A DNA stretch of 64,000 nt, from the NCBI GenBank assembly GCA_018304985.1, contig JAGVWP010000001.1, positions 3,913 to 67,912 on the forward strand, written 5' to 3'. Shown piece by piece: positions 29,169 to 61,577 of the stretch; the first letter of the stretch is position 1; every line of letters starts with the position of its first letter. A program made the position numbers and the translations under genes. The notes under the pieces are model-generated. The model saw only the letters and a list, made by a program, of their open reading frames with translations. It did no database searches and was not told the DNA's origin. The DNA is from Candidatus Pacearchaeota archaeon (GTDB lineage Archaea > Nanobdellota > Nanobdellia > Pacearchaeales > GW2011-AR1).

Positions 29169-29247
29169 GCGCCTGTAGCTCAGCCTGGAATCAAAGAGCA
29201 GGTCCGTCCTAAGGACAAGGTCGTAGGTTCAAATCCTACCAGGCGCA
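29169..29247 (+). tRNA. tRNA-Arg (anticodon CCT) with an unusually long D region (about 5 extra nt)
   Basis: Acceptor GCGCCTG/CAGGCGC, anticodon loop GTCCTAA, T arm GTAGGTTCAAATCCTAC. The D loop is 14 nt instead of 7-11. Confidence 0.6.
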
Positions 29248-54018: not shown

Positions 54019-54846
54019 TTATAATCTATCTAAAGGAGATTTGACTTTTTTAATTTGACTGCTTGAAATATGAGTATATAATTCGGTAGTAGAAATATTG
54101 GCATGACCGAGCATTTCTTGAATAATCCTTATATCTGTTCCACTTTCTAATAAGTGGGTTGCGAATGAATGTCTAAGAGTATGGGGAGTCACTTTTTTGT
54201 TTATTCCTGCTTTCAGCGCTGTTTTCTTAATTAAAAGTTGTATGTTTCTGGTTGTTAAAGGCTTGTCCTTTGAAAAAATGAATTTATTTTCGGGATTGCT
54301 AGTTATCTGTTTTTCCAGTTGCTTTGAAATTGAATCTGCTAATCTAAATATTCTATCTTTTTTCCCTTTTCCTCTCCTGACCCAACCAATACTTTGTTTA
54401 AAATCTAAGTCTTTAGGAGTAAGGTTAACTAGTTCTGAAACTCTTAAGCCAGAGCTGTAGAGAAGCTGGATTAAAAGTTTTGATTTTTTGAAATTGGCTG
54501 AATCTATTAAAGATCTAACTTCTTCAACAGAAAGCACTTCTGGAAGCTTTCTCTCCCTTTTTGGGACTTCTAACTTAACAAATATATCTGGCCTGTCAAG
54601 AACTCTTTTAAAAAAGAATCTTAAACTTGAGACAGCCAAAGCCCTAGATTTATTGCTATATCTGTCAATTAAACTAGCTAGATAGGATTTAACTTCATCA
54701 AGACTTGTTTTTTCAGCAGAGTCTATTTTTTCTAAAAATGGTCTGAGAAAGAAAATGTAAATGTTAATTGTATTTTTACTATAATCTCTTAATCTTAATT
54801 CAGTCTTCACTTTATCCAAGTATTTTTCTATTTCCTCTTTTTGCAT
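54019..54846 (-). CDS. xerA: tyrosine site-specific recombinase (XerA/XerC/XerD-like)
   Basis: C-terminal catalytic box LRHSFATHLLESGTDIRIIQEMLGHANISTTELYTH, plus R and K box residues. Confidence 0.8.
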   Translation of the reverse strand: MQKEEIEKYLDKVKTELRLRDYSKNTINIYIFFLRPFLEKIDSAEKTSLDEVKSYLASLIDRYSNKSRALAVSSLRFFFKRVLDRPDIFVKLEVPKRERKLPEVLSVEEVRSLIDSANFKKSKLLIQLLYSSGLRVSELVNLTPKDLDFKQSIGWVRRGKGKKDRIFRLADSISKQLEKQITSNPENKFIFSKDKPLTTRNIQLLIKKTALKAGINKKVTPHTLRHSFATHLLESGTDIRIIQEMLGHANISTTELYTHISSSQIKKVKSPLDRL

Positions 54847-56060: not shown

Positions 56061-56261
56061 AGAAGATCATCTTTTCAGCCCATACTGAATAATGCTGATG
56101 ATATTAGTATCAGCGAGACAATCGATCTTTAACTAATGGCTCTGTTAGTTAATGCCGTCTTTAACTCTTTTTAGTTGAAAGGTAAAGGGTTTTTAGCTAT
56201 TTAAAGGTTTAGAAAATAAGGTTGAATATATGCTAAAACATGTTATCTTTGCTTAAATGTT

Positions 56262-56447
56262 TTAAGCAATATCTGGTAAATATGAATGTCTAATTTTGCT
56301 TAAAACTCCTAAATATCCCTGCGAAATTGGATCAAAATCTGGATCAAAATCTCCCCTATCTAATTCTTCTAGTGAAAGAGTTCTAGAAACTTTTTCTTCA
56401 AGTCTAATAACTTTAATTGTTGGATTAGACTTATAATAATCCGGCAT
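56262..56447 (-). CDS. hypothetical small protein
   Basis: ORF. Confidence 0.25.
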   Translation of the reverse strand: MPDYYKSNPTIKVIRLEEKVSRTLSLEELDRGDFDPDFDPISQGYLGVLSKIRHSYLPDIA

Positions 56448-56534
56448 AATATAAAATAGTAAATTTGGTTTTTAAATTAAATGGTTAGAAGTTATAGGGA
56501 TATTTTTAATAGGCAAAATAGGTTCTTTATAAAT

Positions 56535-57085
56535 GAAATATAGCTGTTTATCGGGATTTTTGCTATGGGATTTTTATCGACGTAGTTTAGGTGTTTATTG
56601 GTGTTTAAACAGCTGTTTATTGTAAAATTAGTGCTGTTTAAAGTGTTAAAATAGCTGTTTATGGGTGTTTTTTATAAGTTTTTATAGTATTTTTTGCTGA
56701 AAAAACAAAACATTTAAATACCTCTTCCGTATATAAATTATAGAATGTTTAACTGGCTATTTAATCATAAGAAAAAAGAGGAGATGGAAGAGGTAAAAAA
56801 GGAAGTAAGAGGCTCTTTTGATCATGTTAAATCTGATATTGAAAGAATTAGCAAGTGGGTTAACCATCTAAACAACCAGGATATTTCTTTAAACAGCTGT
56901 TTAGATGATGTTAAACAGGATATATCGACGATAAAAAATGATCTTGAACAGGTTAAAGAAGTTATTTCTATGTTAAATGATGAGGTATCTAAACAGGTGT
57001 TTAAAACAACTAAGCCTGTTTATCGTAAACAAACAGCTGTTGAAGGTGTCCAAACAGCTGTCCAAACAGCTGTCCAAACAGGCAA
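56535..57085. repeat. array of at least 9 copies of the palindromic motif AAACAGCTGTTTA / CTGTTTA spanning the promoter and 5' part of the downstream HTH gene
   Basis: Copies near 56541, 56608 (perfect taaacagctgttta), 56632, 56653, 56890 (perfect), 56993, 57015 and 57030. A 3 x 12-bp tandem gtccaaacagct lies at 57049-57084. Confidence 0.8.
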
Positions 57086-57380
57086 AAATAATGATTTTTT
57101 AGGAATCTCAAATTTATCTGTAACTGAAAAAGCAATTCTTTGGGTTTTAATAAATAATGAATTAAAATTAAGTTATGATGATTTAGCTGCAATGCTTGGA
57201 AAAACTAGATCAACAATAAGAGGTCAGATAAATAGTATAAAACAGAAAAGTGATGGATTAATTGAAGAATATGTTGAAAGTAATGGTAAAAAAAGGGTTT
57301 ATATTCCTAGTGAAATAAAGGAAAAAATACTAAAAAATGTGAAAGTGAGAATTGATAAGAAGATTAAAAGAAAGGGATAA
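56745..57380 (+). CDS. coiled-coil / C-terminal winged-HTH DNA-binding protein with a TAVQ low-complexity linker
   Basis: N-terminal heptad-like region, (TAVQ)3 repeat, and a C-terminal LSVTEKAILWVL...STIRGQINSIKQK HTH. Confidence 0.5.
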   Translation: MFNWLFNHKKKEEMEEVKKEVRGSFDHVKSDIERISKWVNHLNNQDISLNSCLDDVKQDISTIKNDLEQVKEVISMLNDEVSKQVFKTTKPVYRKQTAVEGVQTAVQTAVQTGKNNDFLGISNLSVTEKAILWVLINNELKLSYDDLAAMLGKTRSTIRGQINSIKQKSDGLIEEYVESNGKKRVYIPSEIKEKILKNVKVRIDKKIKRKG

Positions 57381-57832
57381 GGTAGTGGATAATAGATTAA
57401 TTAAAGTTGTATAAGGGGGGTTTGTAGGACCTAAAATAACTCTAAAAAACGAAAAGTGAGAGTTCAAATATCCTAAAAACCTAAGGAAAATAGGGAAAAA
57501 GGTAAGTAAATAGGCAAAACAAAAAATAAATAGGTAAAAGTGAGGATAAAAATACTAAAAAATTTTAATATTGATTAAATAAAAAATTCAGAATGTAGTA
57601 AAGTGAGAAGAGAATAAGAAAAAATAAAAATAACTTGGTAAAAATATATTAAAAAATAAAGGAAAATGAGAAAAATGTAGGGGGTAAAAAGAGAAAAAGG
57701 AGGTGTAAATGTAGGGGATAAATAATAAGTGAGATAAAATAAAGGAAAACATTAAAAAAAATAAACTGGGAAATTAGAAGGTTAGTAGACTTGTTCGGTA
57801 TACCCATTAACTAGAAGTTTATATTTATGAAT
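57381..57832 (+). other. 450-bp non-coding polypurine (A/G >85% on the + strand) spacer with short internal repeats
   Basis: No ORF on either strand. Motifs such as aaataggYaaaa, aaagtgag and gtagggg recur. Confidence 0.6.
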
Positions 57833-58510
57833 TTATATCTCTCTAAGCTTGATTAAAGTGTCTAAAGAGGCTAATTTTTTGAGATTTTGAGATATGTGGA
57901 GGAGAACTTTCTTGTTATTAATCTTTTCTTTCTCAAGGGAGATACCCTTGGCAATTATCCTTTGAATATAGTCTCTAATTGAGCTTTCAGAAAGATTTAG
58001 CTTGGAAGATAATAAGGGATAATCGACGAGAAAGCCCTGATCTTCAAGCTGGTAAATAAGAGAAAAAACAAGCATTTCCTGGTTAGTAAGATGTTTAAAT
58101 TGAATGATAGTCTCTTTTTTAAGAGCATCCAATTGGTCTAAAATTAGGGAAGTATTAGGTAAATAACCCTGTCTGTCTGTCTGTTGGTTTGTCTGTCTGT
58201 CTGTCGAAACCCCCTTATTTCCTATGGAATTTAAGGTATTTTGACTTTTTAAGCCTTGAAATTGGTATTTATCTGTCGAAGTGTCTGTCGAATTGCTGGA
58301 ATGTGTTGGATTTATCTGTCGAAGTGTCTGTCGGTTTGTCTGTTTGAAATTAGGGTTTTTTTCTAAAATATTTGAGTTAGTTTTAACAGAAAAAAGAACT
58401 AGAATTGAATTTTGGATTTCATCAAGTTCTTTATGAATACTTGAAATTTCCTGCTTAAGAAGAGTTATATCTTCTTTTACTTTTTGAAAAGCTTCTTTTA
58501 CCTGATCCAT
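57833..58510 (-). CDS. coiled-coil / C-terminal HTH protein, paralogue of 56745-57380, with (GTCT)n-encoded TDRQ low-complexity region
   Basis: Same architecture as 56745-57380; C-terminal LTNQEMLVFSLI...SSIRDYIQRIIAKG HTH; tetranucleotide tracts at 58170-58204. Confidence 0.5.
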   Translation of the reverse strand: MDQVKEAFQKVKEDITLLKQEISSIHKELDEIQNSILVLFSVKTNSNILEKNPNFKQTNRQTLRQINPTHSSNSTDTSTDKYQFQGLKSQNTLNSIGNKGVSTDRQTNQQTDRQGYLPNTSLILDQLDALKKETIIQFKHLTNQEMLVFSLIYQLEDQGFLVDYPLLSSKLNLSESSIRDYIQRIIAKGISLEKEKINNKKVLLHISQNLKKLASLDTLIKLREI

Positions 58511-58576
58511 GTTTTAGGAATTAACTAGAATTTTATAAAGATTTGTATTATTTCATCTTATGTATTCTAAAGAGTT

Positions 58577-58846
58577 TCATTTGGTATGGTTAGAATAAGC
58601 TTCCTGGGCTTTATTTGATAATCTCCATCTAAGTCTTCTTAGGTATTTAGTTCCCTTTGAATTCTTATTTATAGGGATAACAATACCTTTTTTCTCTAAT
58701 TCCTGAATTAGAGTTTTTGTAAATTCTTCATCCCTAGCTATTTCATGGGCTATTTGAGAAGTAAATAGTGGTTTTGGGAATTGATCATAAAGAACTGAAA
58801 GAATATGTTCTGTTATTTTTTCCCTCTTTTTATCTGAAATTTTCAT
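58577..58846 (-). CDS. small winged-helix protein
   Basis: ORF with a helical pattern. Confidence 0.3.
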   Translation of the reverse strand: MKISDKKREKITEHILSVLYDQFPKPLFTSQIAHEIARDEEFTKTLIQELEKKGIVIPINKNSKGTKYLRRLRWRLSNKAQEAYSNHTK

Positions 58847-59830: not shown

Positions 59831-59995
59831 CTCCACCCTGACCCCCTGGTTTCGTATAGAAATGTTTAAAAAGAAAATTGAAATTTTGCTTTTCTTTCTC
59901 TTCTTTTCTTTTTTAAATATATATATTATATATTATATATATTATATTATTATATATAGTAATATATATACTAAAATATATATGTTGATGAGAAT
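59831..59995. promoter_or_regulatory. oriC: predicted chromosomal replication origin region: ORB-like box (ctccaccctgaccccctggtttcg, 59831-59854) plus AT-rich DUE with (TA)n/(TATAT)n tracts (59906-59985)
   Basis: Immediately upstream of orc1/cdc6, in the canonical archaeal oriC-cdc6-polD arrangement. A pyrimidine run precedes an almost pure A/T repeat. Confidence 0.45.
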
Positions 59996-60254
59996 TTGTT
60001 AAAAGATTCTAAAATAAGTTATAAGAAATTATAAACTAAGTTATGGGAATTTTAAAGGGAATTCTGGCTATTTCAAAGGAGGAAAAAAGATATATTTCGA
60101 GGGTAAAGTTTTATTTTTAATGTATTTAATTCTCCATAAGAAACAGAGGTGTGAGTATAAAATAATTAAGATTTAAATTAAAGAAATAACCTATTATACA
60201 AAAGTTTATAAGAAATAAGATTATCTGATTTTGTAAAAAGAGGAAAAAGAGGAA

Positions 60255-61577
60255 ATGCCCAATATATTGCCAATATCAAAGACACCTAATTCAAAAATAC
60301 CTAATACCTTAAATAATTCAAATAAGTCTCAGGAGGGGATGAATAAAATTTTTGATTCTTTTATGCAGAATAGTATTTTTGAAAATAAAGCGGTTTTACA
60401 GACAAGTTATACTCCTGAAACTATCCCACATAGGGATGAACAAATAGGGCAGATTGCCAGTATATTAGCTCCTGCATTGAGGGGTGAGAGAACAAGCAAT
60501 TTATTTGTTTATGGCAAAACTGGGAGTGGGAAGACTATTTCTGTCCAGTGTGTTAGGGATGAATTGTTAAAAAGACAAGCAACAAACAAAAATAAATTAA
60601 TTATACAATATATTAACTGCAAGCTAAAAAAGGTTTCAGATACAGAATATAGGATTTTAGCCGAGTTAATAAAAAAGCTCGGAGGAAATGTTCCTGCTAC
60701 TGGTCTTCCGACAGACCAGGTTTATAATAAATTTTTAGAATTAATTGACAATGAAAAGAAATTAGTTATTCTTATTTTTGATGAGATTGACCATGCAGTT
60801 AATAAAATTTCAGATAATTTCCTTTATAACTTAACTAGATTAAATTCCGAGCTTTCTAAAAGCCAGATAAGTGTTGTTGGAATAAGCAATAATCTGACTT
60901 TCTTAGATGATCTTGATCCTAGAGTTAGGAGTTCTCTAAGTGAAGAAGAGGTTGTTTTTCCACCCTATAATGCTTTAGAGTTACAAGATATTTTAAAAAA
61001 AAGAGCAGATATGGCCTTTAAAAAAGGAGTTTTAGAAGAAGGAGTTATAGCAAAATGTGCTGCATTCGCTGCAAGAGAGCATGGAGATGCAAGAAGAGCT
61101 TTAGATTTATTAAGAATAGCTGGTGAAATTGCTGAAAGAAATAATCTCCTTAAAGTAAGTTTGAAAGACATAGATAATGCCAATGAGAAAATAGAGAAAG
61201 ACAAAATTTTAGATATTGTTAAAACAGAGCCAAAGCAATTTCAGCTTGTTCTTCTTGGAATTATGGAAATTCTTGAAAAAAAGGAAAAAAGCGAAAAAAC
61301 TTTGTTTGATAGCGAAAAAACAAAGCAAAGTGAGGTTTTTACAGGAGATATTTATAATGCTTACCAGATATTATGCGAGAAAACAAAAACAGAAGTGTTA
61401 ACTCAAAGAAGGGTTTCAGATATCTTGTCTGAATTTGACATGATGGGAATAATCAACAGCACTGTGATCTCCAAAGGAAGACAGGGAAGAACCAAAAAAA
61501 TAAAATTAGCTGTCCCGAAGAATCTTACAGGAAAAGTGAAGACTATTTTATATGATTCACTTGAATTAACTGCTTAA
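60255..61577 (+). CDS. orc1: Orc1/Cdc6 replication initiator (AAA+ with C-terminal winged helix)
   Basis: Walker A GKTGSGKT, Walker B ILIFDEID, sensor and arginine regions, winged-helix C-terminus. Confidence 0.9.
   Translation: MPNILPISKTPNSKIPNTLNNSNKSQEGMNKIFDSFMQNSIFENKAVLQTSYTPETIPHRDEQIGQIASILAPALRGERTSNLFVYGKTGSGKTISVQCVRDELLKRQATNKNKLIIQYINCKLKKVSDTEYRILAELIKKLGGNVPATGLPTDQVYNKFLELIDNEKKLVILIFDEIDHAVNKISDNFLYNLTRLNSELSKSQISVVGISNNLTFLDDLDPRVRSSLSEEEVVFPPYNALELQDILKKRADMAFKKGVLEEGVIAKCAAFAAREHGDARRALDLLRIAGEIAERNNLLKVSLKDIDNANEKIEKDKILDIVKTEPKQFQLVLLGIMEILEKKEKSEKTLFDSEKTKQSEVFTGDIYNAYQILCEKTKTEVLTQRRVSDILSEFDMMGIINSTVISKGRQGRTKKIKLAVPKNLTGKVKTILYDSLELTA

Follow-up and report, generated by a model that had tools for sequence, protein, structure and literature searches.

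A conserved, helically phased site array, probably a protein-binding DNA element, between two convergent winged-helix genes near the putative replication origin of Pacearchaeales

The window analyzed here (the whole stretch of 64,000 nucleotides) is a chromosome segment of Candidatus Pacearchaeota, a member of the DPANN archaea, with about 30% G+C, and our subject within it is a noncoding spacer that separates two convergent genes, which we call HTH1 and HTH2. A first-pass annotation had singled out this tract as a strand-asymmetric interval between two paralogous genes, and the coordinates it gave are borne out, in that the spacer is the exact gap between the stop of the HTH1 open reading frame (ORF) and that of the convergent HTH2 ORF. 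We argue below that the tract is probably a cis-acting element of double-stranded DNA, that is, a conserved, one-directional and helically phased protein-binding array laid on curved DNA near the origin of replication. The three features from which the analysis starts are as follows.

57381 to 57832, + strand: the spacer, a purine-rich, A-tract-rich platform carrying a site array between the convergent genes HTH1 and HTH2
56745 to 57380, + strand: the HTH1 gene, 211 amino acids; a candidate binder of the array, with two copies of the array motif (A-sites, see below) and three palindrome-like sites in its coding sequence
57833 to 58510, - strand: the HTH2 gene, 225 amino acids; a distant HTH1 paralogue with the same predicted architecture and likewise a candidate binder

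The + strand of the spacer contains 51% A, 20% G, 23.5% T, and 5.1% C. The strand asymmetry and the near lack of C reported in the first-pass annotation thus stand, whereas its figure of over 85% A+G does not: purines make up 71.5% of the whole spacer, 74-81% of its central 100-nucleotide blocks (where C falls to 2%) and 78% of its best 300-nucleotide segment. The latter, at 57483-57782, is the most purine-rich segment of this size in the 64 kb (mean 0.529, standard deviation 0.077; about +3.3 standard deviations), and, by a rough gene call, the spacer is both the longest convergent intergenic gap of the window (452 bp against a median of 158) and the most strand-biased gap of at least 150 bp (0.71 against at most 0.63 elsewhere). 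That no ORF exists on either strand is essentially right, the tract holding just ORFs of 45-54 codons on the pyrimidine-rich strand, since stop codons are lacking there by composition. The short recurring words listed at that stage are also present where they had been placed, with aaataggcaaaa at 57508, aaataggtaaaa at 57528, aaagtgag at 57453, 57537, and 57600 (and an additional copy at 57342, within the HTH1 coding sequence), and gtaggg at 57677 and 57711. Because independent assemblies (L001, L002, and L004) carry a 452-nucleotide spacer of equal composition, an assembly artefact is ruled out.

The layout of the locus is conserved over a wide range of relatives. HTH1 has 2386 relatives in the databases, whose source-given organism names are all Pacearchaeota among the matches listed, and HTH2 has 1677 homologues; scanning at one genome per species, we found HTH1 relatives in 408 species-representative genomes, and 80 loci were fetched and examined. 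In about 73 of these 80, the next ORF of at least 110 codons after HTH1 is the convergent HTH2. The orthologous spacers range from 49 to 727 bp and are, in almost every case, 0.60-0.80 purine on the HTH1 strand with 2-12% C. Four loci whose HTH1 is 91%, 67%, 66%, and 60% identical to that of the window all have a gap of 290-490 bp between HTH1 (+) and HTH2 (-) and share the order HTH1, gap, HTH2, PRC-barrel gene, long gap, cdc6, and PolD. The spacers themselves barely align (75 spacers fall into 70 clusters), and HTH1 identity is just about 50-70%. Rather than the unrelated and unconstrained sequences that the first-pass annotation had named as the outcome that would tell against it, the orthologous spacers keep the compositional bias, the motifs, their orientation, and their helical phase. 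A search of viral contigs returned no HTH1 relatives, and a mobile-element origin was rejected on this ground and on that of the conserved syntenic position.

What the spacers have in common is an asymmetric motif of about 14 bp, AAAAGTGAG(A/G)GTTA, with the extended consensus aAAAA-n5-AAAAGTGAG(a/g)gTTAAa, which we refer to as the A-site. Its core, AAGTGAG, occurs in 63 of 73 spacers (about 40-fold enriched), and AAAGTGAG occurs in 61 of the 73, about 43-fold over flanking DNA. There are 121 AAGTGAG copies in the 73 spacers, against a chance expectation of about 4 as estimated from spacer composition, and all of them lie on the HTH1 strand and point to the origin (oriC, see below). A locus typically has three to five exact copies, and more if degenerate ones are counted. 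Elsewhere in the loci the word is at or below chance, with 1 match in 27.7 kb of cdc6-upstream region. In the window, the spacer carries four A-sites, scored with a position weight matrix (PWM).

57450 to 57467, + strand: A-site 1, CGAAAAGTGAGAGTTCAA, AAGTGAG core at 57454; the top PWM match of the whole window, score 19.7
57534 to 57551, + strand: A-site 2, GTAAAAGTGAGGATAAAA, AAGTGAG core at 57538; 84 bp (8.0 turns) past site 1
57597 to 57614, + strand: A-site 3, AAGTGAG core at 57601; 63 bp (6.0 turns) past site 2
57723 to 57740, + strand: A-site 4, AAGTGAG core at 57727; 126 bp (12.0 turns) past site 3

The one strong A-site-like match outside the HTH1 locus, AAAGTGAGG at 61327-61335 (PWM 12.6), falls in the cdc6 coding sequence, where it sits in a lysine/glutamate-rich insert and is probably due to chance.

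The spacing of these sites is not free. Gaps between successive AAGTGAG copies, which range in full from 28 to 156 bp, cluster at about 43, 53, 64, 74.5, 84.5, 94, and 105 bp, that is, at whole turns of the helix, mostly 4 to 8. A Rayleigh test on the gaps finds the best period at 10.2-10.5 bp (R = 0.53, p ~8e-15), and none of 2000 null sets with a jitter of ±5 bp reaches the observed phasing value. Looser definitions of the motif give a period of 10.4 with p from 1e-15 to 1e-18, and de-duplication by clustering HTH1 at 75% identity and keeping a single locus from each cluster (45 lineages, 78 gaps) gives again 10.4, with p ~8e-9. A register of 10.4-10.5 bp is the pitch of B-DNA, and the A-sites therefore lie on one face of the double helix, as is characteristic of DNA that proteins bind cooperatively, bend, or wrap. 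Read-through or hidden coding cassettes were rejected as an explanation for the recurrence of AAA-GTG-AGA, since the spacer copies are frame-independent (37, 37, and 36 copies in the three frames) and stops abound in the tract.

The array does not end at the HTH1 stop codon. AAGTGAG occurs twice within the HTH1 coding sequence, in two different reading frames, as AAA-AGT-GAG (K-S-E) and then as AAA-GTG-AGA (K-V-R), and the window has both positions.

57248 to 57254, + strand: upstream coding A-site, codons K-S-D-G; core AAGTGAT, one mismatch from AAGTGAG
57339 to 57356, + strand: 3' coding A-site, codons K-V-R-I; AAGTGAG core at 57343, PWM 13.5

At the first of these, orthologues carry AAACAGAAAAGTGAGGG in the KSEG frame, and the copy lies 95 bp before the next one in 44 of 49 loci; across loci, 67 A-site copies of the second kind fall in the last 60 nucleotides of HTH1. 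The codons that spell the motif are nearly fixed: serine is AGT in 61 of 61 cases (26% elsewhere in the gene), glutamate GAG in 48 of 55 (33% elsewhere), and valine GTG in 73 of 79 (19% elsewhere). Such freezing of synonymous codons means that the nucleotide word itself is under selection. The 3' coding copy also shares the helical register of the first copy in the spacer (n = 58, R = 0.62, p ~2e-10). At the other end, in four loci with very short spacers (L038, L040, L046, and L052), an AAGTGAG copy on the HTH1 strand falls within the HTH2 coding sequence, about 30 nucleotides in from its 3' end, and overprinting seems to retain the array where the gap shrinks.

A second periodicity was found independently of the first. 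The starts of A-tracts in the spacers recur every ~10.5 bp, with peaks at lags 10, 20-21, 31, and 41, and their normalised power is 5.2 in the spacers and 4.0 once the sites are masked, against 0.1-1.2 in 350 kb of flanking DNA. A-tracts kept in register should make the spacer segment intrinsically curved, and an indicative wedge model places the most curved 126-bp segment of the 64 kb at 57474, in the spacer (z = -7.4), and the second most curved at 56654, in the HTH1 upstream region. In 24 of 55 loci, the most curved segment is found in the spacer or in the HTH1-upstream array, against about 10% expected from their length. Since every site and nearly every A-tract lie on the same strand, the purine excess that first drew attention to the tract is a by-product.

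Further elements accompany the A-sites inside the spacer and on the far side of HTH1.

57676 to 57722, + strand: module B, two direct copies of TGTAGGGG(G/A)TAAA, at 57676-57689 and 57710-57722
57790 to 57811, no strand assigned: module C, an imperfect palindrome of about 20 bp just past the HTH2 stop, here CTTGTTCGGTATACCCATTAAC
56544 to 56662, + strand: companion array of six [GC]TGTTTA sites, the palindrome TGTTTAAACAGCTGTTTA among them; ranks second in modelled curvature

Module C has the family consensus half-sites GTTATTCGGTA and TACCGAATAAC (element pattern GTTATTCG(G/T)T...CGAATAAC) and is found, allowing two mismatches to the left half-site, in 67 of 75 loci, where its end is usually no more than about 20 nucleotides from the HTH2 stop. 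A hairpin or terminator was rejected for want of covariation: its arms pair in 68.9% of cells, more than the 33-50% obtained on sliding one arm, but shuffling the partners among sequences gives 69.7%. Because pairing does not exceed that of the shuffles and conservation is far higher in the left half than in the right, module C is best taken as a DNA site, for a dimeric protein. A Xer/dif site, for comparison, has two 11-bp inverted arms with 6 bp between them and is unique and located in the termination region (PMC2958812); module C is a unique imperfect inverted repeat with arms of about 9-10 bp, of which the right one is weakly conserved, and it lies about 2 kb from oriC, not at the terminus, with a Xer-like gene nearby in some loci only. 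As to such genes, a XerA-like tyrosine recombinase is encoded at 54019-54846 of the window, next to a HAD hydrolase gene; another locus (L008, 398-1231) also has a tyrosine recombinase, next to an SNase gene, its HAD gene falling beyond the stretch retrieved, and two have a serine recombinase (Resolvase) beside a HAD hydrolase gene (L007, 2361-3122; L009, 1411-2163). An 18-nucleotide direct repeat, ATTAACTAGAA(G/T)TTTATA, brackets HTH2 at 57806-57823 and 58520-58537. It reads as a TATA-like box on the - strand, and its upstream copy is well placed as the HTH2 promoter, while the downstream copy points to module C and a T8 run some 40-60 nucleotides on, so that a very short antisense transcript from this copy is conceivable.

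The two copies of module B flank a Shine-Dalgarno-like GGAGGTG (57699-57705) and an ATG-TAG start-stop pair; the combination of two TGTAG(T/G)nnnTAAA copies around GGAGGTG is found in 19 of 74 spacers, in closer relatives only. The GGAGGTG is a perfect Shine-Dalgarno-like sequence followed, after 4 nucleotides, by ATG-TAG (57699-57714), and similar GGAGG plus (A/T)TG-TA(G/A) arrangements occur in closer relatives (L011, L015, L016, and L019).

Upstream of HTH1, a region of 300 bp is G+T-rich and C-poor, and its [GC]TGTTTA sites and palindrome CTGTTTAAACAG recur in 60-68 of 77 loci, with spacings of 10, 12-13, 20-21, and 31 bp (R = 0.62). It also contains TTATCGACG, at 56574 in the companion array, and a conserved TTATCGACGA motif. 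Within the HTH1 coding sequence, at 57045-57080, (GCTGTCCAAACA)x3 encodes VQTAVQTAVQT in a linker predicted to be disordered, and across species its codons are frozen (CAA in 192 of 192, ACA in 181 of 193, GCT in 70 of 70). As DNA, this repeat is identical to the upstream palindrome at all but one base, the one that would introduce a TAA stop, which suggests that the conserved VQTA peptide is really a DNA site. HTH1 is, as far as the sequence tells, flanked on both sides and partly overwritten by phased arrays of putative sites.

The two flanking proteins share one plan. In the AlphaFold model of HTH1, an 80-residue N-terminal helix (coiled coil) is joined by a disordered linker to a C-terminal winged helix-turn-helix, which is followed by a basic tail; the model of HTH2 likewise joins a long N-terminal helix to a C-terminal winged helix through a disordered linker. 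Each protein has a weak match to Pfam HTH_11. Their description as paralogues, although BLASTP does not see it (E = 0.057), is backed by hhalign (probability 95%, E = 3.6e-8, 157 columns) and by this common architecture. With Foldseek, the DNA-binding domain of HTH1 matches the winged helices of MarR, MepR, and AbfR2; its NCBIfam scores for Sta1 (23.4 bits against a cut-off of 80) and Lrs14 (16.5 against 90) remain below threshold, and a sequence search of PDB chains with HTH1 gave coiled-coil noise only. The recognition helices of HTH1 and HTH2 are invariant across the families. Two peptides at the ends of HTH1 may, judging from their conservation, be short docking peptides for partners or the membrane: the nearly invariant hydrophobic N-terminus M-F-x-W-L-F (56745-56765) and, in one sub-clade (L038, L050, L054, L061, L062, L064, L081, and L084), a C-terminal (I/V)SEY.

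Rightward from the tract, HTH2 is followed by a small winged-helix gene (HTH_69), a 134-codon gene (for whose product NCBIfam and PDB sequence searches gave nothing informative), and a PRC-barrel gene, then a 610-bp A+T-rich gap with a (TA)n-rich stretch (59890-59995), and then cdc6/orc1 (60255-61577) and the PolD small subunit. In all 37 loci that reach it, cdc6 is on the HTH1 strand, 2.2-3.2 kb past the HTH1 stop. With a PWM built from a conserved stretch inside HTH2, just three origin recognition box (ORB) matches are found in the 64 kb, at 58232, 59864, and 60129.

58203 to 58232, - strand: ORB, TTCCATAGGAAAT-AAG-GGGGTTTCG, overprinted on the HTH2 linker about 370 bp from the spacer
59835 to 59864, - strand: ORB match to the left of the (TA)n stretch before cdc6
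60129 to 60158, + strand: ORB match to the right of the (TA)n stretch before cdc6

The box inside HTH2 encodes S-I-G-N-K-G-V-S-T (S-I-G-N-x-G-V-S-T in the family), in a linker modelled at low confidence by AlphaFold, and 65 of 65 species keep the same synonymous codons there (serine as TCC against 11%, glycine as GGG against 23%, threonine as ACA). By its sequence, TTCCATAGGAAATAAGGGGGTT, it appears to be an ORB, with a TTCC-N-GGAAA dyad, a G-run, proximity to cdc6, and conservation at the nucleotide level, and it agrees with Pyrococcus ORB sequences in the TTCC...GAA core and the G-run (PMC1904270). Its consensus recurs as cdc6-proximal matches in other loci, and some relatives have two copies of the HTH2 box 43-57 bp apart. 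The two inverted ORB-like boxes around the (TA)n stretch upstream of cdc6 are probably oriC, in the classical archaeal layout. Scanned with the same matrix, the spacer has no match; the A-site was itself rejected as an ORB, as it has no TTCC...GAA dyad and is absent upstream of cdc6, where the boxes are of the TTCCATAGGAAA type. The A and C motifs are both absent from cdc6-upstream regions.

The array thus occupies the outer left edge of the origin region, some 0.4 kb beyond the auxiliary ORB in HTH2 and about 2 kb away from the unwinding element that the ORBs flank upstream of cdc6, and it marks the meeting point of the only origin-directed gene, HTH1, with genes transcribed away from the origin. 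With regard to the ORB inside HTH2, Pyrococcus has a second ORB cluster inside the dp1 coding sequence that is bound by Cdc6/Orc1 in vivo (PMC1904270). Like the HTH2 box, the dp1 ORBs are overprinted on a coding gene that flanks the origin and are conserved across related genomes, so that by analogy they would be a direct precedent for the HTH2 ORB and for an origin region spanning neighbouring genes. Unlike them, the spacer array has another motif and presumably another binder.

From the conservation, orientation, and helical phasing of the sites, the phasing of the A-tracts, the constraint on synonymous positions, and the absence of RNA signals, we infer that a protein binds the tract, and we propose the following mechanism. 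The array would begin with the two copies in the last third of the HTH1 coding sequence and end at the 20-bp palindrome by the HTH2 stop. A sequence-specific protein would bind the A-sites (AAAAGTGAGRGTT) cooperatively on one face and, by bending or wrapping the curved DNA, build a stable nucleoprotein complex of higher order. The protein binding suggested in the first-pass annotation would thus hold for double-stranded DNA, and not for RNA as the target, and a protein-loaded array at the spacer could act as a barrier between the convergent units. One or both of the flanking paralogues are the candidate binders, each with a long coiled coil, a flexible linker of 40-70 residues, a winged helix-turn-helix, and a basic tail; two tethered DNA-binding heads on a coiled coil would explain why the spacing varies by whole turns and not by half turns. 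HTH1 and HTH2 are natural candidates because their genes flank the array, they have a DNA-binding fold, and their invariant recognition helices match the invariant sites.

Several observations weigh against this proposal. The assignment of HTH1 and HTH2 as binders is guilt by association, and the motif and the recognition helices are both invariant, leaving no usable covariation from which the binder could be identified. The output of the wedge model is indicative only, and in 31 of 55 loci it puts the most curved segment outside these two regions. Within the window, the 3' coding copy (57343) is 111 bp (10.6 turns) from site 1, half a turn out of phase, and is therefore an exception to the family rule that the four spacer copies follow. 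Neither module C nor the distance between it and the last A-site shows significant phasing. In the Pfam annotation of all genes, no ParA, SegA, ParM, or TubZ-type NTPase is encoded within ±6 kb, which weakens a classical centromere reading. Finally, a T5 terminator is missing from the + strand of 37 of 67 spacers, which makes it likely that the tract is transcribed as the HTH1 3' untranslated region and leaves room for an additional role at the RNA level.

This last point also counts in favour of an alternative that we nevertheless regard as improbable, namely that the element acts as RNA, as the HTH1 3' untranslated region or a noncoding RNA whose AAAGUGAG words would bind or titrate an RNA-binding protein. 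CsrB and RsmZ are protein-sponge RNAs of this type, and the tract resembles them in that a short word would be repeated many times along a transcript otherwise lacking structure. Every copy is on the HTH1 sense strand, two copies are in the mRNA under synonymous constraint, the sense strand is probably transcribed, and an unstructured purine-rich RNA would expose the motifs. However, a spacing of 10.4-10.5 nucleotides and the phasing of A-tracts make sense for a double helix and not for single-stranded RNA, and together with the palindromic site they set the tract apart from CsrB and RsmZ and point to duplex DNA. Nor is terminator avoidance behind the low T content, as T5 runs are not depleted relative to composition (48 observed, 14 expected). 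The structured noncoding RNA envisaged in the first-pass annotation, and a known RNA family more generally, found no support either. Rfam 15 at gathering threshold detects only a 5S rRNA and tRNAs, elsewhere in the window; over 56200-58700 with E up to 10, it gives only sub-threshold chance matches, none of them inside the tract. There is no tRNA or tmRNA in the tract. Of 100 shuffles, 99 fold better than the + strand (z = +2.38), the - strand is about average (z = -0.59), and no compensatory changes are seen. Among the Rfam calls outside the tract, a tRNA at 29169-29247 (53.9 bits) has no counterpart in ARAGORN and may have an intron or be atypical.

We also consider it unlikely that the tract is itself a replication origin, made of iterons bound by Rep-like HTH1/HTH2 or serving as an A-rich unwinding zone for the HTH2 ORB. 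The iterons of theta-type plasmids (pPS10, F, P1, R6K) are direct repeats that function with winged-helix Rep initiators. As in these plasmids, repeats of one orientation and in helical phase lie beside a gene for a winged-helix protein with N-terminal zipper dimerisation, related inverted half-sites occur in or near the promoter, and A-rich bent DNA is adjacent; the phased repeats, the winged-helix genes, the related palindrome, and the palindromic array at the HTH1 promoter thus compose a classical iteron layout, with an ORB 370 bp away. But iterons are contiguous, about 22 bp (about 2 turns) apart, whereas the gaps here are variable and of 4-12 turns, and copies extend into coding sequence. 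The locus is chromosomal and universal in its lineage, with no HTH1 relatives on viral contigs. A complete, canonical probable origin, with its two inverted ORBs around (TA)n, is found 2 kb off, and the spacer has just 75% A+T against 70% genome-wide. In addition, the array would lie on the G-run side of the HTH2 ORB, which in the oriC ORBs is the side facing away from the unwinding element.

Very little credence can be given to an absence of function, in which the sites would be decayed duplications of the HTH1 3' end (KVRV, AAA GTG AGA GTT) or a minisatellite of ~10-11 bp, with strand bias on top. The motif does match the codons of KVRV, the conserved C-terminus, some weak internal repeats (families D4 and D6) take in the end of the coding sequence, and weak tandem repeats of period 12 and 20 are present in the tract. 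Yet motif, orientation, and phase are kept where spacers no longer align, and neutral indels would erase a 10.5-bp register. Duplication cannot explain the frozen synonymous codons, and the second coding copy is in another frame (KSEG) while the spacer copies are frame-independent. The long gap is also retained in very small, compact genomes (median 739 kb; bioRxiv 10.64898/2026.05.13.725050). As a repeat class in its own right, a tandem repeat or minisatellite was rejected, the weak 12- and 20-nucleotide repeats having only about two copies, as was a CRISPR array, the repeats being short, degenerate outside a 7-9-nucleotide core, and irregularly spaced. The intramolecular triplex (H-DNA) that had been proposed in view of the strand-asymmetric purine content, and that would itself stall forks or polymerases, can practically be set aside, because the purine runs of the tract are short (18 nucleotides, then 11) and broken by a T at intervals of a few bases, mirror repeats with arms of at least 8 nucleotides and a spacer of up to 8 are absent, and longer purine or pyrimidine runs occur elsewhere in the window (26, 23, and 21 nucleotides).

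As regards the role that a protein-binding array would play, about a third of our expectation goes to the organisation of the origin-proximal chromosome, its tethering, or the control of initiation, and, about equally, another third to a protein roadblock or insulator with feedback on the expression of HTH1 and HTH2, the rest being left to other roles. The former is favoured because the array is unique, conserved along with oriC, adjacent to an ORB, and has sites in the gene of its putative binder as parS has in parB; the latter, which would act where HTH1 runs into the outward-transcribed origin genes, because of the spacers in which the + strand has no T5 terminator.

Centromeres provide a parallel for an origin-organising role. 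Plasmids have direct-repeat centromere arrays such as parC/ParR of R1 and tubC/TubR, and origin-proximal parS sites lie inside the parB/spo0J gene. In archaea, SegB sites are next to segAB (PMC8682754, PMC12139799). Here too, a unique origin-proximal array has small dimeric DNA-binding proteins alongside, with repeated candidate sites beside and inside the gene of the putative binder, and a higher-order curved nucleoprotein complex would be expected. Unlike centromeres, the locus has no partition NTPase in its vicinity, and HTH1 and HTH2 have a coiled-coil winged-helix architecture instead of ParB, ribbon-helix-helix, or SegB folds. Another comparison is with the winged-helix and coiled-coil families Lrs14, Sta1, AbfR, and Sso10a, which include architectural DNA-bending proteins (PMC11841832, PMC4941522): the HTH1 domain resembles AbfR2/MarR structurally and weakly matches Sta1/Lrs14, but it scores far under their cut-offs, and the long coiled coil of HTH1 is N-terminal, beyond a disordered linker. 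In the full-text literature on origin elements of Pacearchaeota/DPANN and on proteins of this kind, no prior description was found; a recent survey of complete Nanobdellota genomes used Orc1/Cdc6 only to rotate genomes (bioRxiv 10.64898/2026.05.13.725050). The principle, phased direct repeats on bent DNA with winged-helix binders encoded nearby, is known from iterons, centromere arrays, and enhanceosome-like assemblies; the motif, the wide and variable whole-turn spacing, the overprinting on coding sequence, and the fixed place by an archaeal origin appear to be undescribed.

More speculatively, and with clearly less confidence than for the array itself, the whole 2-kb block, with its upstream palindrome array, HTH1 and its overprinted sites, the A-site array, the palindrome, and HTH2 with its ORB, might be an unrecognised origin-proximal chromosome-maintenance module of Pacearchaeales. 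The two paralogues and Orc1/Cdc6 would then assemble into one higher-order complex that would tether, segregate, or license the single origin, in a centromere- or datA-like fashion without a ParA-type motor. If this were true, the conserved linker islands of HTH1 and HTH2 would be kept as DNA sites and not for a role in the protein.

DPANN archaea such as Pacearchaeales are uncultured and have the smallest archaeal genomes, and to our knowledge almost nothing is known of how their chromosomes are organised, replicated, and segregated. A lineage-wide phased array by oriC, with two candidate DNA-binding paralogues, would be approachable with recombinant proteins and synthetic DNA alone. Beyond this lineage, the locus indicates that overprinted DNA sites can dominate coding sequence, including motifs in disordered linkers, which bears on how conservation and codon usage are interpreted, and that an anomaly of strand composition can be the shadow of oriented sites and phased A-tracts rather than of RNA or non-B DNA.

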